Assembly: GCA_038063555.1 (NCBI GenBank)
Contig: JBBTUX010000008.1
Span: 1 to 60,357 of the forward strand
Direction of reading: 5' to 3'
Source of the DNA: Patescibacteria group bacterium
GTDB lineage: Bacteria > Patescibacteriota > Minisyncoccia > Phycocordibacterales > JAKFXT01
DNA length: 60,357 bases
Positions 11,148 to 60,357 of this stretch are shown here, in pieces. How positions within the stretch are numbered: the stretch's first letter is position 1; every line of letters begins with the position of its first letter. The translations under genes and the position numbers were made by a program. The notes beneath the pieces are model-generated. The model ran no database searches and was not told the origin of the DNA. It was given only the letters and a program-made list of their open reading frames with translations.

Positions 11148-12401
11148 ATGAGTGAAGATGCAGAAAAATCAAATGATCATAAACGCTTAGGGCACGAACT
11201 AGACCTTTTTGCATTTTCCGACACTGTGGGAAAAGGACTCCCTCTTTGGACCTCGAAAGGAGCGACGGTTAGACGCGAGCTGGAGAGATTTATAGTGGAT
11301 GAAGAAATTAAGCGTGGCTACCTGCATGTTTACACGCCAGATATTGCAAAGTTAGATTTATATAAAAAGTCAGGACATTACCCACACTATCAAGATTCAA
11401 TGTATGCGCCAATTGAAATTGATAAAGAAAAATTTATGTTACGCCCCATGACTTGCCCGCATCATTTTGAACTTTATTTACGCAAACCCTGGAGCTACAG
11501 AGAGTTGCCAGTACGCATGGCAGAACTTGCCAAACTTTATCGCTATGAACAATCGGGCGAACTTATGGGGCTACAGAGAGTGCGCACTTTTTGTTTAGCT
11601 GATGCCCATATTATTTGTAAAAACGAAGAGGAAGCGGTGGATGAAATGGGCCGGGCCTTAGATTTAATAGAGTATGCCAACGGCGTTTTGGGACTCGAAA
11701 TGGGAAAAGATTATCATTATCGCCTTTCGCTTGGAGACAGAAACAATATAGAAAAATATTATAAAGATGATAAGGGTTGGGACAAAGCGGAAGATTTGTT
11801 GCGCAAACTGATGGACGGGAGAGGGGTAAAATATGTGGAAGGAAAAAATGAAGCCGCCTTCTACGGACCCAAAATTGATATTCAAATGAAAAATGCCAAC
11901 GGTAAAGAAGACACCGCTTTCACTGTTCAATATGATTTATCTAGTCCAGAAAAATTTAATCTTGTTTATATAGGCGAGGACGGCAAAGAACATCGCGCTT
12001 TTGTGGTGCATCGCTCATCAATTGGTTCCATTGAGCGCACTATGTCTTTCTTAATAGAAAAATATGCTGGCGCCTTCCCTCTTTGGCTCTCACCCACTCA
12101 AGTAAGGATTTTGCCGATAAGCGAAAAACACCTTGAATACGCAAAATCAGTTTACGAAGAATTTAGAAAAGAAAATATTCGCACAGAAATTGATGAGAGT
12201 AATGAAACTTTGGGCAAGAAAATCAGAAACGGCAAGACGGAAAAAATCCCCTATCTTTTGGTAATCGGGGACAAGGAAATAGAAAGTGAGACGGTGAGTG
12301 TAGAAAGCCGCGATGAAGGCCAGCTCGGTGCTCAAAAATTAGAGGGTTTAATCTCCAAACTCAAAAAAGAAATCTCCGAAAAGAAATCGGGAAAGAAGTA
12401 G
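11148..12401 (+). CDS. thrS: threonyl-tRNA synthetase, catalytic plus anticodon-binding domains only (417 aa)
   Basis: ..RLGHELDLF...GKGLPLWTSKGATVRRELE.., class II motifs. The N-terminal TGS and editing domains are absent. Confidence 0.85.
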   Translation: MSEDAEKSNDHKRLGHELDLFAFSDTVGKGLPLWTSKGATVRRELERFIVDEEIKRGYLHVYTPDIAKLDLYKKSGHYPHYQDSMYAPIEIDKEKFMLRPMTCPHHFELYLRKPWSYRELPVRMAELAKLYRYEQSGELMGLQRVRTFCLADAHIICKNEEEAVDEMGRALDLIEYANGVLGLEMGKDYHYRLSLGDRNNIEKYYKDDKGWDKAEDLLRKLMDGRGVKYVEGKNEAAFYGPKIDIQMKNANGKEDTAFTVQYDLSSPEKFNLVYIGEDGKEHRAFVVHRSSIGSIERTMSFLIEKYAGAFPLWLSPTQVRILPISEKHLEYAKSVYEEFRKENIRTEIDESNETLGKKIRNGKTEKIPYLLVIGDKEIESETVSVESRDEGQLGAQKLEGLISKLKKEISEKKSGKK

Positions 12402-55123: not shown

Positions 55124-56155
55124 TTAAATATTTTTACCACTCACTATCACATGCTCTAGTAATGCATGGGAATATCCCATCTCATTATCATACCAAGCGC
55201 AAACCTTGACTAAATTCCCATCTATAACTCTGGTTAAATTTAAGTCCGCAATTGAGGCAAAGGTGTTCCCCACTATGTCAGATGACACCAATGGCTCATC
55301 CGTTACAGAAAAAACTTTTTGCCACCTCTTTTCCTTTGACGCTTTTTTTAAAGCTTCATTAACCTCTTCTACACTCGTATTTCTTTTAGAAATAAAGGTA
55401 ATGTCTGCAATAGATCCTGCTAGGACTGGCACTCGCATTGAAATACCGTCAAATTTGCCAACTAATTGCGGCAGGGCTTGGGAAAGGGCTATTGCCGCTC
55501 CAGTTGAAGTCGGCACTATATTTCCCGCGGCGGCACGTCCTTCTTTCCAATCTTTCTTTGATGGACTGTCAACGATAGATTGACTGGCGGTATAACCATG
55601 CACGGTTGAAAGTACCGCTTTTTCTATGCCAATCGCTTCATCCAATATTGCAATTAGTGGACTTGCGGCGTTCGTAGTGCAAGATGCATTTGAAGAAATG
55701 GAAGTGTCAGTAAGTAAATTGTCATTTATTCCAAGGAGCACGGTTTCTCCTTTTAACCCATCTGGCGCTTTGTCTTTAACGGGAGCGGTAATAACCACTC
55801 TTTTTGCCCCAACATCCAAATGCGCTTTTGCTTTTTCATAATTAGCAAATCGCCCAGTGGATTCTACAACAATATCAATCCCCAATTTCCCCCAGGGAAG
55901 TTTGCTCGGGTCTTTTTCACTTAAAAATGCGATCTCTTTTCCGTTTACTATTAATTTTCTGTTTTCGCCATTAACTTCTGTTTTTATATCCAAGTCACTT
56001 TTACCATAAACGGTATCGTATTTTAAAAGGTAGGCAAAATTCTCTACCATTCCCAAATCATTTATCGCCACAACTTCAATCCCCTTCTTTTTTATCGCCA
56101 ATTTGAAAAAAGCCCTACCAATTCTTCCAAAACCGTTTATAGCAACCTTCGTCAT
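55124..56155 (-). CDS. gap: glyceraldehyde-3-phosphate dehydrogenase
   Basis: MTKVAINGFGRIGR.., SNASCTTN active site. Confidence 0.92.
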   Translation of the reverse strand: MTKVAINGFGRIGRAFFKLAIKKKGIEVVAINDLGMVENFAYLLKYDTVYGKSDLDIKTEVNGENRKLIVNGKEIAFLSEKDPSKLPWGKLGIDIVVESTGRFANYEKAKAHLDVGAKRVVITAPVKDKAPDGLKGETVLLGINDNLLTDTSISSNASCTTNAASPLIAILDEAIGIEKAVLSTVHGYTASQSIVDSPSKKDWKEGRAAAGNIVPTSTGAAIALSQALPQLVGKFDGISMRVPVLAGSIADITFISKRNTSVEEVNEALKKASKEKRWQKVFSVTDEPLVSSDIVGNTFASIADLNLTRVIDGNLVKVCAWYDNEMGYSHALLEHVIVSGKNI

Positions 56156-56192
56156 TATCTTTATTTATTAATCACTATTTTAATGTTTATTA

Positions 56193-57335
56193 TTATAACA
56201 GATGCTTTCTTAACTTGTACGCATTCCCATGTTTCAACATCCCCAAATATGATTTCATTGTTTCTCGACTTGCCTTGCCATTCATTGCCCTTAGCATCCT
56301 CCTTTTTGTTGTGTTTCTCAACACCCTGTGTCTTGCAAAATTCACCCAACCCAGGAAATCAACGCCTGATGATAATGTTTTGATAAATACTTTGTTGGGG
56401 TGAAGTTGAAGTGAAAGTTCCTTTTCTAGAAAACATACGATATATCGTATGTTTTCTAGAAGTTGATTCTTGTTTTGTGAAAGTATGACAAAATCACCAG
56501 CGTATCTTATGTAATATTTAATCTTTAATTTATGTTTAATGAATTGGTCAAATTCATTCATATAGATATTGACCAGAAGTTGAGAGGTGAGATTACCCAA
56601 GGGCAGTCCTTTCTCTTCTATTCCAATGTTCTCAAGAACATTGGAATAGGTAAGAGGGCTGAAACTACTGAAACTGTTGATTACTCTCTCTAAAAGCCAC
56701 GTTGTGTCTTTATCGGTTATGTGTTTCTTAAGAATGTTCAGCAGTATTTCTTGGTCAATTGAAGCAAAGAATTTTCTGATGTCGCATTTCAAGACAAAGC
56801 ATTGTTTAGTGTTGTTTTTTGATACCTTGTAAGCAAAACTTCTGAAACGATTCATTGCCTTGTGTGTGCCTTTACCTACACGGCAGGAATATGAGTCGTA
56901 AATAAACTTCTGGTCAAAGTAAGGATAAAGAACCCTGTGGATGGCATGGTGGAGTAACCTGTCTCTGACACTGGCCTTGTGTATGTTTCGGGGCTTGGGG
57001 TCGCTAATGTTAAAGGCGCTGTATCCTCCGTGAGTGTATGTTTTGGTTTTGAGGTCGTAGTGTAAAGACAGAATATTGTCCATCAGATTAAGCTGGAATT
57101 CTTGCACGTCTTTTTTGTGTTTTTTGCCGCGTAGAAATTCCTGCCACGCTAATAACAAATTATCAACAGAAATGATATTGTGGTAAGTGTGAACAAATCC
57201 AATTTTCTTTCCGTTAAAGCCCCCCCCCTCATCAGTTTTTGCCTGTTCTCCTGCATTTGAAAGATTGTTACATTTTGTGGTATCAATATTATCAAATACT
57301 ACCCAAGATTCATCGTCATACAATTGGACAGACAA
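56193..57335 (-). CDS. DGR-type reverse transcriptase (atypical YAGD catalytic motif; start uncertain, no in-frame ATG before the conserved core)
   Basis: GLPLGNLTSQLLVNIYMNEFD (DGR-specific motif 4), IRYAGDFVIL (motif 5), N-terminal ..NLLLAWQEF... Confidence 0.85.
   Translation of the reverse strand: MSVQLYDDESWVVFDNIDTTKCNNLSNAGEQAKTDEGGGFNGKKIGFVHTYHNIISVDNLLLAWQEFLRGKKHKKDVQEFQLNLMDNILSLHYDLKTKTYTHGGYSAFNISDPKPRNIHKASVRDRLLHHAIHRVLYPYFDQKFIYDSYSCRVGKGTHKAMNRFRSFAYKVSKNNTKQCFVLKCDIRKFFASIDQEILLNILKKHITDKDTTWLLERVINSFSSFSPLTYSNVLENIGIEEKGLPLGNLTSQLLVNIYMNEFDQFIKHKLKIKYYIRYAGDFVILSQNKNQLLENIRYIVCFLEKELSLQLHPNKVFIKTLSSGVDFLGWVNFARHRVLRNTTKRRMLRAMNGKASRETMKSYLGMLKHGNAYKLRKHLL
56425..56460. 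repeat. perfect 36-nt palindrome inside the RT coding sequence
   Basis: TCTAGAAAACATACGATA|TATCGTATGTTTTCTAGA. The core is identical to 48848-48865. Confidence 0.85.
57220..57228. repeat. homopolymer C9 (G9 on the RT strand)
   Basis: Read directly. Lies in the RT 5' region and 10 nt upstream of the avd start. Confidence 0.9.
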
Positions 57336-57601
57336 CTGATAATTTGTTTATAGAAAGCATAGAAGCAATATCTGTTGCAGGTTTTTTGCAGAAAAGTGAC
57401 AAAATTCCTTTTGTGCGTCTCGCTATCAGAAAAATAGATACCATAAAAATATTTTTGCTTGTACTTTGGGAAACAAAATCTTTGGACAATAAAAAATATA
57501 TATCTCTTTCCGAAAAACTTGACCCGATAGGGCGTATGCTCGGTGGTTGGCTTGGACAACTGCAAAAACAAAACTCCCCCACGAAAGCAGGGGAGAAATG
57601 A
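57239..57601 (+). CDS. avd: DGR accessory variability determinant (Avd), encoded on the strand opposite to RT/TR/target
   Basis: ..LPKIHRHTIGQ.. and C-terminal ..IGRMLGGWLGQLQKQ...KAGEK, resembling Bordetella phage Avd (..IPRKHG.., ..VGRILGSWIARVNRKGQAGK). TTG starts only. Confidence 0.75.
   Translation: MPVLLHLKDCYILWYQYYQILPKIHRHTIGQTTDNLFIESIEAISVAGFLQKSDKIPFVRLAIRKIDTIKIFLLVLWETKSLDNKKYISLSEKLDPIGRMLGGWLGQLQKQNSPTKAGEK
57560..57596 (-). terminator. hairpin plus U-tract immediately 3' of TR (minus strand)
   Basis: Minus strand CTCCCC-tgctttcgtg-GGGGAG followed by TTTTGTTTTT. Overlaps the avd 3' end. Confidence 0.5.
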
Positions 57602-57607
57602 GGAGAA

Positions 57608-57734
57608 TTGCGCGAGAGGCAGCAGGATTGTCACCGTTCCAGTCATTGTCGAGCCAGTTGTAGTTCGACACCACCTTGCCCTCGTTCCAGTAACCATAGC
57701 GTACGTACAGGTTGTCGTTCGTCGGGTTGCGGAA
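57608..57734 (-). repeat. DGR template repeat (TR)
   Basis: 127 nt aligning without gaps to 58073-58199. The only differences are 14 positions that are A in TR (minus strand). Confidence 0.88.
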
Positions 57735-57990
57735 ATGTGCATAATGCCTTCCAGGCCACTGCTAGTAAGGGAGCATATTTACTCAATCCACTAGCTGTAT
57801 CGAATTCCGCATCGTAATGCGATAGCACTATGCACCAAGTATCTTCATTTTTTGAAGTTTCTACACACACCACTCTATCTGAATCCGTGAACACAGATAC
57901 TCTCGATGTATGGATACTGGATTCGGCCGCCGGAAACCTTAATCTCCAGCAGATTCGCCTACTACCATTGTAATGTTATACCAAAATGAA

Positions 57991-58015
57991 AGGCCCCGCG
58001 ATATTTGCGGGGCCT
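57991..58015 (-). terminator. hairpin plus U-tract downstream of the VR and target gene
   Basis: Minus strand AGGCCCCGC-aaatatc-GCGGGGCCT followed by TTCATTTTGG. Confidence 0.6.
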
Positions 58016-58067
58016 AAGGACTAAGTCCCAAGTGCCAAAATAGGCCACAGGAACTGAGTCCACAGTA

Positions 58068-58661
58068 CTAACTTGCGCGAGAGGCAGCAGGACCGCCACC
58101 GTCCCAGTCATCGTCGAGCCAGTCGTAGTTCGACACCACCTCGCCCTCGCTCCAGCAACCACAGCGTACGCACAGGCTGTCGCTCGTCGGGTCGCGGAAG
58201 ATGTCATCCCAGAAGTACACGTAAATCGTGTTACCCTGGTCATTCTTCTTCCAGCTCTCTGGCCAAAGCGCGGGGTTTTCAACGCACTTGTCGAGAACGC
58301 TCGCGCTGACGTTGTCGCCCGCAGCATCTCGTTCCTTGCGGAGATCGTGGCCACCAGCGACTTTGCCGCCCCTCTGATTCTCAGAGAAAACGAGCTCGAG
58401 CCTTGCGTCATCAAGGTAAAGATCGTTGCCGCGCTTCTCGAGCTTCACAATGCCGGACTTGGCCGGGCTCATGCGTTCGGTTCTCTTGAACGGGAGCTTG
58501 CAGGGCACCGAGAAGTCGATCAATACCTCGAGGGCGCTGAGCACGACTCCCTTGAGCCACAACTTGAACTCCTCGAAGCGGGGACGGCCGTTGTTTCCGC
58601 CGACCTGATCCATGAGTTCCGTGAGCGGTCCCTGGAGCTCAGAGACATCAACTTTTTTCAT
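58068..58661 (-). CDS. DGR target protein (197 aa, no signal peptide) with C-terminal variable region
   Basis: Start set at MKKVDVSEL (GGAG 7 nt upstream). The C-terminus FRDPTSDSLCVRCGCWSEGEVVSNYDWLDDDWDGGGPAASRAS corresponds to the TR-encoded FRNPTNDNLYVRYGYWNEGKVVSNYNWLDNDWNGDNPAASRA. Confidence 0.85.
   Translation of the reverse strand: MKKVDVSELQGPLTELMDQVGGNNGRPRFEEFKLWLKGVVLSALEVLIDFSVPCKLPFKRTERMSPAKSGIVKLEKRGNDLYLDDARLELVFSENQRGGKVAGGHDLRKERDAAGDNVSASVLDKCVENPALWPESWKKNDQGNTIYVYFWDDIFRDPTSDSLCVRCGCWSEGEVVSNYDWLDDDWDGGGPAASRAS
58073..58199 (-). repeat. DGR variable repeat (VR)
   Basis: See TR. It ends 5 nt before the target stop codon. Confidence 0.88.
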
Positions 58662-58822
58662 AACAAAACTCCTTATGTTGTGCCAGCGGACCACCGGAAT
58701 GGTAGTCATAGCGAGGAATGGCCTCTATTGTCTTTTTTGTTAAGCCACTTTTCGCTATGACCACCCGCCTGCGCAGGCAGACTCGCAAGTCATATCAAAG
58801 ACCTAATCTATAGTAAAACAAA

Positions 58823-60226
58823 TTAAATCAGTTTTGTCAATATTTCCTTTAAAACCTGCGGGTTGGCACTCCCTTTGGACTTTTTCATGCCTTGACCCAC
58901 TAGAAATTGAATTGAAGATTCTTTGCCAGATTTATACTCTTCAACCGCTTTTCCGTTTTCGGCAATGACTTCTTCGGCAATTTTTTTAAGTAAACCTTCA
59001 TCGCTTTGTTGCAAAAGCCCTTTTTCTTTTGCCAAAATTTCAGGAATGGCATCCTCGTCAAAAAGAAAAGTTAGAAGGTCTTTTGCGCCACGAGAAGAAA
59101 TCTTGTTTTCTGATGTCATTTTTATAAGGTCGGCAAAATTCTTGGTAGAAACGGCAAAATTGCGATTAAAATTTTTCACAAGTCCTGCTAAGTCCGAGGT
59201 AATATAATTTGAAGCAAGCTGAATCAATTTTTTATTTTCTTCCAATTCTCCAGAAACCTCATCAAAAAATTTACCGAACAAATCATTTGTCACATACATT
59301 TCAGCATCTTCTGCTTTTAATCCTTTTTTAATGTATCTTTCTCTTTTTTCCCAAGGTAATTCGGGTAATTCTTTTTTAAGGTTTTCCTTGGAAAATTCCG
59401 TGATTTCAGAAATATAAAGTTTTGGTAAATCTGGGTCTGGAAAATATCTATAATCATGTGAATCTTCTTTAAGACGCTGACTAAAAGTGGTTAAATTATT
59501 TTCATTCCAACCACGAGTTTCTTGAATAACGTTTCCCCCTTCATTCAAAAGTTTGCTCTGTCTTTCTATTTCATAGGCAATTGCGCCCGACACAGCTTTG
59601 AACGAATTTAAATTTTTGACCTCCACCTTTGTTCCTCTTTTTCCTTTAAGCGCAACCGAAATATTGGCTTCCACCCTCATTTGTCCTTTTTCCATATTAG
59701 CTTCTCCCGCCCCAACATAACGTAAAAGAAGTTGTAATTCTTTAGCAAATTTAACTGCGGTTTCCGCATCATGTATTACAGGTTCTGTTACCAACTCCAT
59801 AAGAGGCACGCCAGCGCGATTGTAATCAATTAAACTAATATCTCCTTCGTGTTGGGAACGAGCGGTATCTTCTTCAAGGTGAACACGAGTCAATTCGACT
59901 CCATCTATTTCCCCACCTAAAACAAGGGGGTGTTTATATTGACTTATTTGATAACCCTTCGGAATATCTGGATAAAAATAATTTTTTCTATCAAATTCAG
60001 TGAAATCCGCCAGTTTACCTTTGACAGCTATGCCAATTTTTAAAACATTTTTTATAGCTTGTTTATTAATTACAGGAAGTGTCCCGGGGTGCGCCATGCA
60101 AATGGGGCAAATATTTTTGTTCGGAGTTTTTTCATCAGGATCATTCTTACAGGAGCAAAACATTTTCGTGTTTGTCTTTAACTCCGCATGCACTTCTAAG
60201 CCGATGGTGGGAATGTATTTGGACAT
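58823..60226 (-). CDS. gatB: Asp/Glu-tRNA amidotransferase subunit B
   Basis: ..IGLEVHAEL.T.TKMFCSC.., 467 aa with a C-terminal YqeY-like tail. Confidence 0.9.
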   Translation of the reverse strand: MSKYIPTIGLEVHAELKTNTKMFCSCKNDPDEKTPNKNICPICMAHPGTLPVINKQAIKNVLKIGIAVKGKLADFTEFDRKNYFYPDIPKGYQISQYKHPLVLGGEIDGVELTRVHLEEDTARSQHEGDISLIDYNRAGVPLMELVTEPVIHDAETAVKFAKELQLLLRYVGAGEANMEKGQMRVEANISVALKGKRGTKVEVKNLNSFKAVSGAIAYEIERQSKLLNEGGNVIQETRGWNENNLTTFSQRLKEDSHDYRYFPDPDLPKLYISEITEFSKENLKKELPELPWEKRERYIKKGLKAEDAEMYVTNDLFGKFFDEVSGELEENKKLIQLASNYITSDLAGLVKNFNRNFAVSTKNFADLIKMTSENKISSRGAKDLLTFLFDEDAIPEILAKEKGLLQQSDEGLLKKIAEEVIAENGKAVEEYKSGKESSIQFLVGQGMKKSKGSANPQVLKEILTKLI

Positions 60227-60234
60227 GGTAATGA

Positions 60235-60357
60235 TTATAGAGAAATTACTGATAAAGGGAAATCTCTATATTCTTTTTTTAGTTTGTGTGTATTCCCCCA
60301 CCTCAACATCCCTAAATATGATTGTCTGGTATCTTCTTTCGGATTATTCTCTAGATT
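60235..60357 (-). CDS. 3' end of a second DGR-type reverse transcriptase gene (continues off the right edge)
   Basis: Own translation: ..NLENNPKEDTRQSYLGMLRWGNTHKLKKEYRDFPLSVISL stop. Compare the first RT C-terminus ..RETMKSYLGMLKHGNAYKLRKHLL. There is nucleotide similarity to 56193-56290. Confidence 0.6.
   Translation of the reverse strand, partial: NLENNPKEDTRQSYLGMLRWGNTHKLKKEYRDFPLSVISL

Follow-up and report, generated by a model that had tools for sequence, protein, structure and literature searches.

Does the retroelement that lies next to gatB in this Patescibacteria genome still rewrite its target gene? The window, by which we mean the whole 60,357-nt stretch of DNA that was analysed (contig JBBTUX010000008.1), had been described in a sequence-only reading as carrying a complete diversity-generating retroelement (DGR) with several atypical features. 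All of the sequence features listed in that reading are present where it had placed them. DGRs of CPR/Patescibacteria genomes were reportedly first surveyed by Paul et al. in 2017. The interpretation that we favor, to which we assign a probability of roughly 0.75, is that the locus is a chromosomal DGR of a Patescibacteria lineage and that the copy in the window most likely cannot diversify on its own at present. The window copy was compared with a set of about 80 related loci, with motif counts taken over 85 loci and pairs of template and variable repeats found in 38 loci.

The template repeat (TR; 57608..57734, minus strand) is 127 nt long, contains 33 adenines and lies within a non-coding RNA, and the variable repeat (VR; 58073..58199, minus strand) makes up the final 42 codons of the target gene. 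Together they constitute an ungapped direct repeat of 127 nt with 89% identity. The length and coordinates of the pair are those that had been read from the sequence, as is the position of the VR at the end of a GC-rich protein of 197 amino acids. On the minus strand, along which the target is encoded, each of the 14 mismatches is an A-to-G change at a TR adenine; the other 94 positions, which are not adenines, contain no mismatches. Six of the changes fall at first codon positions, eight at second positions and none at third positions. The adenine criterion for TR/VR pairs is that at least 75% of the mismatches be at TR adenines (Roux 2021, PMC8144416). The TR is composed of AAC/AAT/TAC codons, including nine that are AAC or AAT. 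Both repeats end in the same 20 nt, TCCTGCTGCCTCTCGCGCAA, an identity that had also been pointed out before. This shared 3′ end is IMH-like, and no distinct IMH/IMH* pair is visible.

Perhaps such a pattern could arise with no retroelement at all, by segmental duplication of the 3′ end of a gene followed by ordinary mutation (AT-biased drift) or by adenosine deamination. All of the differences are transitions, and their direction fits a non-coding copy that is drifting toward A+T in a genome of 38% GC. However, the probability of finding 14 of 14 differences on one strand is about 4e-4, as calculated from base counts on the assumption that G:C-to-A:T transitions are strand-symmetric. The absence of third-position changes, the codon composition of the TR, and the adjacency of genes for a reverse transcriptase (RT) and Avd likewise argue against duplication. 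Moreover, this arrangement recurs in 38 related loci, where A-to-C and A-to-T changes are found in addition, and homologs of the target vary at exactly the positions of the TR/VR mismatches, where the residues found require A-to-N changes. An ordinary segmental duplication is effectively refuted by these comparative data, and we give an origin without a retroelement almost no chance of being correct. The sequence-only reading had itself named a gene duplication with random mismatches as one outcome that would overturn its proposal, and this did not hold, since the mismatches are confined to adenines and the 38 loci are alike.

The RT open reading frame (hereafter RT1) runs from 57335 to 56193 on the minus strand, encodes 380 amino acids as called from TTG 57335, and matches RVT_1. 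It includes LGNLTSQ, which is the DGR-typical (I/L/V)GxxxSQ motif. The region that is common to relatives begins at about position 57224, and the upstream 37 codons, which overlap avd in antisense, are probably not genuine. The best solved relative of RT1 is the DGR RT of Bordetella phage BPP-1 (8ub7_A, E 5e-34; next RT class, 2e-15), a placement by database similarity. The nearest 120 homologs are CPR RTs, and the nearest relatives are all Patescibacteria proteins with 64-80% identity.

The avd gene (57239..57601, plus strand; 120 amino acids) is carried on the strand opposite to the RT, the TR and the target, and its open reading frame includes GRMLGGWLG. The encoded protein matches NCBIfam DivGenRetAVD (E 8.6e-14, profile positions 2-103 of 104) with 51.7 bits and Pfam bAvd (E 1e-8) with 36 bits. 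Both scores are under the curated cut-offs, which are 80 and 40, respectively. Wherever a related locus extends over this region, an avd ortholog adjoins the RT gene, reversed and directly upstream. Thus, the two protein signatures on which the sequence-only reading had relied, namely LGNLTSQ and a GRxLGxW C-terminus, are both borne out, and the profile searches that it had proposed returned these matches for the RT and Avd and none for the target.

Because the RT is nearest to that of the BPP-1 DGR, Avd matches its profiles, and the TR/VR differences are restricted to adenines, the earlier identification of the locus as a DGR stands. It is a real chromosomal DGR that belongs, as an ordinary member, to the group found in Patescibacteria. 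The lineage is clade 2 of Roux 2021 and has architecture B3 of Wu 2018, TR-(avd)-RT with avd opposite, which accounts for 90% of CPR DGRs (Wu et al. 2018, PMC5758913). The order target, TR, reversed avd and RT is present in all 38 loci with a detectable TR/VR pair, and the TR precedes avd wherever such a pair was found. The features that had been called atypical are therefore normal for the lineage: the architecture is the published one, CPR clade-2 targets typically carry no known domain, transmembrane or otherwise (Roux et al. 2021, PMC8144416), and A-to-G is the commonest substitution in the clade (57%).

The target gene (58661..58068, minus strand) encodes 197 amino acids plus a stop codon, with an AAGGAG ribosome-binding site upstream. 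Its GC content is 58.6% (GC3 0.74) in a window of 38% GC, and in 34 of 34 loci the target genes are GC-richer than their own RT genes by 12 GC points. The exact protein is present on at least nine contigs. Its family includes 62 homologs, and all those that have a source name or map to a named genome belong to metagenome-assembled genomes of Patescibacteria (Saccharibacteria, Paceibacterota, Zambryskibacteria and similar groups). The protein matched no Pfam or NCBIfam domain, and inspection by eye revealed no hydrophobic stretch near its N terminus. In a DGR, the variable residues are expected on a C-type lectin (or an Ig) fold. AlphaFold gave confident models of the target, with pLDDT 86 over the whole protein and 84 over the C-terminal 100 amino acids. 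A Foldseek search of the model against PDB and BFVD gave nothing below E 0.1; the matches included no DGR variable protein and a few C-type lectins at TM 0.25-0.32. A profile search of PDB sequences also gave no match. The family, with its confidently predicted fold and no structural match in PDB or BFVD, is a candidate variable-protein scaffold that would be distinct from the canonical C-type lectin fold.

The hairpin that had been noted about 60 nt downstream of the VR is located 57 nt past the VR end (58015-57991; 57981..58015 together with its T-run, minus strand). Because eight of its nine base pairs are G-C and a T-run follows, it looks like the intrinsic terminator of the target gene, and a hairpin with a T-run occurs at the same place after the VR in 12 aligned relatives. 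There is no resemblance to the cruciform that adjoins the IMH in BPP-1.

Beside this hairpin is a candidate extended -10 promoter, TGGTATAAC (57975..57983, minus strand), which has the family pattern TGnTAnAAT and stands 7-9 nt upstream of the conserved sequence GGTAGTAGG. The putative start of the DGR RNA is assigned from these elements. A structured 5′ domain (57735..57966, minus strand), encoded in the spacer that separates VR and TR, abuts the 5′ end of the TR. In this domain, the predicted elements are stem-loops P1 (57966-57919) and P2 (57899-57876) and a long-range helix P3 (57836-57825 with 57748-57737) that encloses P4 (57822-57807) and P5 (57795-57761). Compensatory changes are found in 37 of the 49 consensus pairs. 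Among alignment cells, 94.7% are paired, compared with 74.8% in shuffles and 40-47% with slid partners, and compensatory cells number 211 versus 62 in shuffles. The covariance model built for this RNA recovers 37 further copies, full-length or truncated by contig ends, and these are directly 5′ of the TR on the RT strand wherever a TR was mapped. In some loci, of which L071 and L002 are examples, two DGR RNAs are near one RT.

A second pairing, which we call the clamp helix, spans the TR. Its 5′ strand is the conserved A-rich sequence AAAAAATGAAGAT (57841..57853, minus strand), which is complementary to the stretch immediately after the TR. This 3′ strand, TTCTCCTCATTTCT (57594..57607, minus strand; family consensus CTCTTCATTT), has the avd stop codon on its plus strand. 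Cis duplexes are stronger than trans duplexes, and none of 5000 permutations reaches the cis value. The hairpin CTCCCCTGC/GTGGGGGAG followed by TTTTGTTTTT (57564..57595, minus strand) would form the 3′ end of the DGR RNA, and on the opposite strand it overlaps the last avd codons. In 30 of 38 loci, the TR is followed by a simple hairpin with a T-run, the stem sequences of which vary. The 5′ RNA, the clamp, the terminator and a repeat at the avd/RT junction (see below) are properties of the whole clade and not of the window copy alone. The structured RNA, the junction repeat and the GC-rich targets are not described in PMC8144416, PMC5758913, 10.1101/2025.08.18.670894, 10.64898/2026.09.22.753630 or Rfam, and the clamp helix and post-TR terminator are not mentioned in the same four papers.

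The claim that the DGR is complete holds for its list of parts, but probably does not extend to its function. Motif C of RT1 is RYAGDF (YAGD), which aligns to RYMDDI of the BPP-1 enzyme bRT, and the YxDD box is therefore not intact. A glycine codon, GGT (56496..56498, minus strand), replaces the first catalytic aspartate, and a single transition from GAT is sufficient for this change. The DD pair is kept in 85 of 85 related loci (Y[A/S/C/V]DD) and in 118 of the 120 nearest database RTs (RY[A/S]DDF), among which one more did not match the motif pattern. The exact YAGD protein is found on at least three contigs, which makes an assembly slip an unlikely source of the glycine. Both YxDD aspartates coordinate the catalytic metals in RTs, and the YMDD-to-SMAA change is the standard dead control for the BPP-1 RT. 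By analogy with other RTs, catalysis by RT1 has probably been lost. The loss of the YxDD box bears on the activity of RT1 and not on its ancestry.

The family-typical start codon of RT1, ATG 57232-57230, is one base out of frame at a poly-G tract of nine residues (G9, or C9 on the plus strand; 57220..57228, minus strand) that is located between the back-to-back avd and RT starts, and it would be in frame only at G10 or G7. The RT1 open reading frame is otherwise intact, and the in-frame TTG 57335 could still initiate translation. The VR and TR of the window copy (VR1 and TR1) are shared at 100% identity by the window contig and four assemblies from four other runs (L105-L108); this invariance is that of consensus assemblies from one aquifer population, in which minority variants could be hidden. 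Given the YAGD motif, the out-of-frame ATG and a VR1 that is identical in five contigs, the window copy is probably inactive or non-autonomous. The absence of non-adenine mismatches between TR1 and VR1 implies that any inactivation is very recent or that the element is still serviced.

For the element to be fully active and autonomous, the YAGD enzyme would have to be active, or the glycine would have to be a minority or consensus artefact, and RT1 would be translated from an in-frame TTG (57335 or 57323) or by slippage in the poly-G tract. It is true that the RT1 frame is open across 380 codons, that the other components and RNA elements are all intact, and that TR1 and VR1 differ only at adenines. 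Furthermore, the tract length varies (G8 versus G9), so that an in-frame G10 is plausible in the population. However, the first YxDD aspartate is kept in some 200 relatives, the YAGD protein recurs on separate contigs, and VR1 does not vary across five assemblies. Autonomous activity is therefore very unlikely in our estimation.

A paralogous DGR (DGR2) lies in tandem with the window DGR (DGR1) on the far side of gatB. The C-terminal 40 codons of its RT (RT2, P0064; 60238..60357, minus strand) are inside the window, and the rest is seen in another contig (L103). RT2 has 354 amino acids, is 80% identical to RT1, and has an intact motif C, RYADDF. It is conceivable that RT1 is dead and that RT2 with Avd2, or RT2 with Avd1, uses the DGR1 RNA, which would keep VR1 diversifiable. 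Such service in trans is made easier to imagine by the avd-RT modules, which are 73% identical in DNA, by the single covariance model that matches both DGR RNAs, by the undecayed TR1/VR1 pair, and by relatives that have two DGR RNAs near one RT. Yet the 5′ halves of the two RNAs differ strongly (120 bits for the DGR2 RNA versus 223 bits for the DGR1 RNA) and Avd2 and Avd1 share only 47% identity, which makes trans-complementation uncertain. The invariance of VR1 in five assemblies also speaks against it. In addition, the VR1 changes are A-to-G only, whereas those of DGR2 are mostly A-to-T (A-to-T 10, A-to-G 7 and A-to-C 2), and the two sets are not obviously the output of one enzyme. We consider it unlikely that VR1 is being diversified in this manner.

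The poly-G tract is one instance of a recurring feature. At the avd/RT junction, 66 of 73 loci have a poly-G (G7-G14), (GA)n or (GT)n repeat, compared with 4 of 1771 control windows of 300 nt, and the units G, GA and GT fill the same site in different lineages. The tract is G9 in the window and in L105 but G8 in the assembly L106, the sole difference across 3306 nt; the coverage of L106 is only 9x, and the difference may be an assembly error. The RT start is apparently downstream of the tract in many loci. Examples of contingency loci in host-adapted bacteria are the poly-G/poly-C tracts of genes in Neisseria and Campylobacter and, in Haemophilus, the (TA)n repeat that separates the divergent hifA/hifB promoters. 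Like these, the DGR loci have a hypermutable repeat at a fixed site, at a gene's 5′ end or in the interval between divergent genes, and a length change alone separates two otherwise identical assemblies (the one case of G8/G9). A difference from contingency loci is that start codons next to the tract are in frame at the chance level (7 of 18). The loci compared suggest that hypermutation in these reduced-genome symbionts may be gated by a contingency repeat.

Returning to our favored reading of a lineage-typical DGR that cannot diversify by itself, the minus strand carries, in order, the target with its C-terminal VR, a putative terminator, a putative dedicated promoter and a predicted DGR RNA of about 400 nt, followed by avd on the opposite strand, the poly-G tract and the RT gene. 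The RNA would consist of the structured 5′ domain, the TR, the clamp helix, in which the A-rich 5′ segment pairs with the sequence directly after the TR, and the terminator hairpin. In working relatives, we infer from BPP-1 that RT and Avd would bind this RNA and copy the TR into cDNA, with misincorporation opposite adenines only, which here would be mostly A-to-G. The cDNA would then replace the VR and so change about a dozen residues in the beta-strands at the target's C terminus. The window copy might have been inactivated recently, or it might rely on the intact paralogous RT and Avd beyond gatB.

We also tentatively speculate, from sequence comparisons, that B3-type DGRs differ from BPP-1 in two respects, namely a self-contained template RNA structured on its 5′ side and a repeat-based switch of RT and/or Avd. 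The template RNA of about 400 nt would have its own extended -10 promoter, an intrinsic terminator and a large structured domain 5′ of the TR. A covarying clamp helix of AAAAAAUGAAGAU with UCUUCAUUU would close the TR into a loop and might place a nearly invariant A-run beside the TR 3′ end, where cDNA priming should occur. The poly-G, GA or GT repeats at the avd and RT starts could act as a hypermutable switch of RT and/or Avd expression. A population would then stochastically toggle targeted hypermutation, and the window copy (G9) would be in the off state.

Taken alone, the DGR in the window is one more member of a lineage that is already known to be abundant in CPR genomes, and it changes little. 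The comparison of about 80 loci provides an RNA model for the architecture of about 90% of CPR DGRs, whose mechanism has so far been extrapolated only from a phage element with a different layout. Moreover, a paralogous pair in which one catalytic site is probably dead could serve as a natural experiment on the servicing of DGR RNAs in trans and on the rate at which inactive cassettes decay.

With the CPR DGRs of clade 2/B3, the locus shares the gene order with reversed avd, the C-terminal VR, a small target with no known domain and adenine-specific mutagenesis. The window copy differs from them in having YAGD rather than YADD, a start codon that is out of frame, and a tandem DGR across gatB. 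With BPP-1 (mtd-avd-TR-brt; bRT-Avd structures include 8ub7), it shares a homologous RT with the (I/L)GxxxSQ motif, an Avd partner, adenine-specific transfer from TR to VR, and an identical GC-rich 3′ repeat end. A-to-G changes also predominate in both, a bias that was reported for the BPP-1 RT in an E. coli reconstitution (bioRxiv 10.1101/2025.08.18.670894). The target here, however, is no phage tail fibre, and no C-type lectin match could be detected for it. In BPP-1, the spacer 3′ of the TR is a structured RNA that recruits bRT-Avd and gives the priming adenosine, and avd is 5′ on the same strand (10.1101/2025.08.18.670894). In contrast, the locus described here has avd on the opposite strand and its large structured domain 5′ of the TR, with only about 14 nt and a terminator hairpin on the 3′ side.

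The diversity-generating retroelement (DGR) located between gap and gatB, termed DGR1 herein, is genuine and belongs, as an ordinary member, to a CPR lineage already known to be abundant. The template repeat (TR1, 57608-57734) and variable repeat (VR1, 58073-58199) proposed in a sequence-only reading form an ungapped 127-nt alignment with 89% identity, and their final 20 nt match, as expected from the identical 3′ ends described there. A scan of the whole window revealed no further VR-like copies of TR1. The reverse transcriptase (RT1) is encoded by a minus-strand ORF (57335..56193; 380 aa) that carries the LGNLTSQ motif recognized earlier and matches RVT_1. Its closest solved structure is the DGR reverse transcriptase of Bordetella phage BPP-1 (bRT; 8ub7_A, E 5e-34), with the next RT class at 2e-15. 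The accessory protein Avd1, encoded on the plus strand (57239..57601), likewise has the GRMLGGW sequence previously noted and matches the full NCBIfam DivGenRetAVD profile (E 8.6e-14; 51.7 bits, cut-off 80), and its match to Pfam bAvd reaches 36 bits (cut-off 40). The public gene call on the parent contig, L103, places a spurious 147-aa ORF here instead of avd1 (11558-12001, equivalent to about 57334-57777 of the window, minus strand). This ORF crosses the TR antisense to avd, and automatic annotation would therefore miss the Avd of DGR1. In the sister assembly L106, avd is called correctly.

For comparison, we fetched 22 loci via the target protein and 80 via the RT, the latter out of at least 581 metagenome matches. 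The avd gene is reversed and lies directly upstream of the RT gene in every locus covering the region. A TR/VR pair is detectable in 38 loci, where the TR follows the VR on the RT strand at a distance of 357-543 nt. This arrangement is the architecture reported by Wu et al. in 2018 (PMC5758913). In the scheme of Roux et al. 2021 it corresponds to DGR clade 2, which is restricted to Patescibacteria and whose targets typically lack transmembrane or other recognisable domains (PMC8144416). On this basis, the reversed avd gene and the small, domain-less target are normal for the lineage. The features that do stand out are the YAGD motif and out-of-frame start of the RT gene, an A-to-G-only mutation pattern, a VR that does not vary at consensus level, and a second DGR nearby. 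We consider the RNA structure, junction repeat, and GC offset found at the level of the clade, all discussed below, to be more worth pursuing than the DGR1 element itself, which is of modest interest. One comparison locus (L006, 6557-6716) looks like a decayed DGR remnant, as a target homolog there is accompanied by a partial match to the DGR RNA and a short piece of Avd, with no RT.

All 14 sites at which TR1 and VR1 differ have adenine in the TR and guanine in the VR when read on the minus strand, which is the coding strand of the target. Codon position 1 accounts for six of these and position 2 for eight, with none at position 3. TR1 has 33 adenines among its 127 positions and contains nine AAC/AAT codons. 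Among the 38 related loci with a TR/VR pair, which belong to one RT clade, adenine substitutions comprise 379 A-to-G (57%), 159 A-to-T, and 128 A-to-C changes. The A-to-G share ranges from 19% to 100%, and this heterogeneity between loci is significant (chi-square p 4e-7). Nearly pure A-to-G loci include L038 (22/23) and L075 (19/22). This spread might reflect misincorporation spectra that differ between enzymes, or differing selection on the VR. The BPP-1 RT reconstituted in E. coli also yields predominantly A-to-G changes (10.1101/2025.08.18.670894), so such a bias is not foreign to DGR enzymes. Given this published spectrum and the clade-wide preference, a deaminase or other mechanism is unnecessary for explaining the pattern. 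However, at the pooled clade rate the probability of 14 A-to-G changes out of 14 is about 4e-4, and the extreme purity of DGR1 is thus only partly accounted for. The VR1 consensus is invariant: L105-L108, four additional assemblies drawn from three Logan runs and one ENA assembly, match the window at 100% identity throughout the target gene and VR1, and also in TR1 wherever they extend that far. At least nine contigs carry the exact target protein.

DGR1 had been described as complete, and all of its parts are indeed present, but its autonomous function is doubtful. Motif C of RT1 reads RYAGDF, and its counterpart in bRT is RYMDDI. A Y[A/S/C/V]DD motif is kept in 85 of 85 related loci, and RY[A/S]DDF occurs in 118 of the best 120 database RTs (64-80% identity), the other two being RT1 itself and one sequence that does not match the motif pattern. 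The glycine codon (GGT, 56496-56498, minus strand) is a single transition away from GAT. Because at least three contigs carry the exact 380-aa protein, an assembly slip is unlikely. Both aspartates of the YxDD motif of RTs coordinate catalytic metals, and we therefore predict that the RT1 enzyme is inactive. The start of the gene is similarly unusual. In relatives, the RT starts near a poly-G tract, either a few codons before it (as in MGGGLKK or MRGGGAF) or at an ATG just downstream. In DGR1, the ATG at 57232-57230 would yield MRGGGFNGKKIGFVHTY but is in frame only with a tract of G10 or G7, and the assembly has G9. The called start is instead a TTG at 57335, which creates a 97-nt antisense overlap with avd. 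The RT coding region also contains a perfect 38-bp palindrome (56424-56461) with 19-nt arms and no spacer, which encodes LENIRYIVCFLE. Palindromes of different sequence with arms of 10-17 nt occupy the homologous site in L023, L050, L002, L040, and a second DGR described next, and the arms at this site are at most 8 nt in most other loci.

At the right edge of the window, the final 120 nt (60238-60357, minus strand) contain the C-terminal coding sequence of a second DGR RT (RT2, or P0064). On the parent contig L103, a 202,502-bp sequence from Hainich groundwater, the order is obg, target2, DGR RNA2/TR2, reversed avd2, RT2, gatB, DGR1, and gap. A whole paralogous element (DGR2; L103 6538-9065) comprising target2, TR2, reversed avd2, and RT2 is therefore present, placing a DGR on either side of gatB. 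RT2 shares 80% identity with RT1, retains the RYADDF motif, and has an in-frame start at TTG-G8. Its 215-aa target2 belongs to a family unrelated to the target of DGR1. TR2 differs from VR2 (L103 7066-7183) at 20 sites (10 A-to-T, seven A-to-G, two A-to-C, and one non-adenine). The DGR1 copy is probably inactive or non-autonomous, residing beside an intact paralog. A contig with two DGR RNA copies is also seen in some relatives, including L071 (856-1096 and 3225-3456) and L002 (992-1233 and 6764-7010). Because a tblastn scan found a single RT-avd pair in L071, a single enzyme may act there on two template RNAs and two targets.

The back-to-back starts of avd and the RT gene are separated by a simple-sequence repeat, G-rich on the RT strand, in 66 of the 73 loci covering the site. 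By comparison, only 4 of 1771 control windows of 300 nt carry one. Of these repeats, 56 are poly-G (G7 to G14, mode 9-10), eight are (GA)n (15-31 nt), and two are (GT)n. In DGR1 it is the G9 tract at 57220-57228. Over 3306 nt, L106, assembled independently from the same population, differs from the window only in having a G8 tract, although its coverage is only 9x. Three kinds of repeat unit at one site, together with this length polymorphism, point to a hypermutable switch. Judging from these sequence patterns, we hypothesize that the repeat is a contingency (phase-variation) switch for expression of RT, Avd, or both. The idea that poly-G always lies inside the RT ORF just past the start codon is unsupported, since adjoining starts are in frame in 7 of 18 cases, which is the level expected by chance; an ATG is found downstream of the tract in many loci. 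We also considered that the poly-G tract might serve as the spacer between the -35 and -10 elements of an RT promoter. Hexamers resembling a -10 element often come after the tract, as this arrangement would require, but the copy in the window has no convincing -35 element nearby.

The target gene (58661..58068, minus strand; 197 aa) is preceded by an AAGGAG ribosome-binding site, and its product has no visible hydrophobic stretch at the N-terminus, in agreement with the earlier view that a signal peptide is absent. Pfam and NCBIfam scans gave no match for the target or for an 83-aa ORF at 57643-57894. We found 62 target homologs, and all those with a source name or a mapping to a named genome are from Patescibacteria MAGs. 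Their alignment reveals a conserved scaffold with variable positions within the last 42 residues, where the residues observed (R, H, L, F, V, Y, C, D, G, S) require A-to-N changes from AAC/TAC codons. The fold had been called unknown. AlphaFold provides confident models (pLDDT 86 for the full-length protein and 84 for residues 98-197). In the predicted C-terminal domain, a pair of helices precedes three or four antiparallel strands, on which the variable residues lie. Foldseek returned no match below E 0.1 for the full model against PDB and BFVD or for the C-terminal domain against PDB; its matches include no DGR variable proteins and a few C-type lectins, at TM 0.25-0.32. A profile search of PDB sequences gave chance matches only. 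Roux et al. suspected a divergent C-type lectin fold for such CPR target domains (PMC8144416), and the modeled target might have either a very divergent version of that fold or a different scaffold.

The target gene is also GC-rich, as remarked previously; its GC is 58.6%, versus 38% for the window. With the VR excluded, target genes average 52% GC compared with 40% for their own RT genes and are richer in 34 of 34 loci (Wilcoxon p 1e-10). In DGR1, the non-VR part (58200-58661) has a GC3 of 0.74, compared with 0.29-0.34 for gatB and gap and 0.43 for the RT1 gene. Spillover of A-to-G mutagenesis on the coding strand is rejected as the source, because outside the VR C3 is higher than G3, and A and T are about equally frequent. 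Recent acquisition from a GC-rich donor by horizontal transfer is also unlikely, given that target GC follows the GC of each host at a constant offset. Thus, neither A-to-G mutagenesis nor a single foreign origin accounts for this clade-wide offset.

A hairpin previously noted downstream of the VR is present 57 nt beyond it (58015-57991). Its 9 bp, 8 of which are G-C, and the T-run that follows give it the appearance of an intrinsic terminator. Comparison among loci shows that a conserved RNA gene occupies the 338-nt "spacer" between VR and TR, with about 230 nt forming a conserved structured RNA. After the target terminator lies an extended -10-like element, TGGTATAAC (57983-57975, minus strand; family pattern TGnTAnAAT), located 7-9 nt upstream of a conserved GGTAGTAGG at 57966. 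RNAalifold applied to 20 loci predicts 49 base pairs, which make up the P1 and P2 stem-loops together with P3, a long-range helix enclosing P4 and P5. Compensatory double changes occur at 37 of these pairs. In a pair-count control, 94.7% of cells are paired versus 74.8% for shuffles and 40-47% when partners are slid, and compensatory cells number 211 versus 62 and 31-44, respectively. A covariance model of this 5′ domain built from the same 20 loci (R1) matches 37 further copies, full-length or truncated by contig ends (E from 1e-10 to 1e-68), including DGR2 (L103 7281-7513) and loci with (GA)n repeats. The copies are on the RT strand, with a contig-end fragment (L041) as the sole exception, and one is located directly 5′ of the TR wherever a TR was mapped. 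An Rfam search over 56000-59000 at E up to 1 produced chance matches only.

Immediately 3′ of the TR is a conserved CTCTTCATTT, which includes the avd stop codon on the opposite strand. Next come a GC-rich hairpin, with a stem that differs in sequence among loci, and then TTTTGTTTT. In DGR1, this hairpin is at 57595-57574 and its T-run at 57573-57564 (minus strand). A simple hairpin follows the TR in 30 of 38 loci, and most others have a compound one. Furthermore, CTCTTCATTT is complementary to a nearly invariant, A-rich AAAAAATGAAGAT of the 5′ domain (57853-57841). The duplex energy of this putative clamp helix averages -6.6 kcal/mol in cis and -4.8 in trans, and none of 5000 permutations reaches the cis value. 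Compensatory variants are found in L062 and L073 (AAAAAGAAAA/UUUUCUUUU), L075 (AAAUAAAAA/UUUUUAUU), and L039 (AAAAUAAGC/GCUUAUUU). The predicted RNA would be about 402 nt (57966 to about 57565), with the clamp helix closing the TR and P3-P5 into a loop. It is tempting to speculate that priming might occur at the A-run opposite the 3′ end of the TR. The large structured element of BPP-1, which recruits the RT and functions in priming, is the spacer located 3′ of the TR (10.1101/2025.08.18.670894), whereas in DGR1 the large structured element resides 5′ of the TR.
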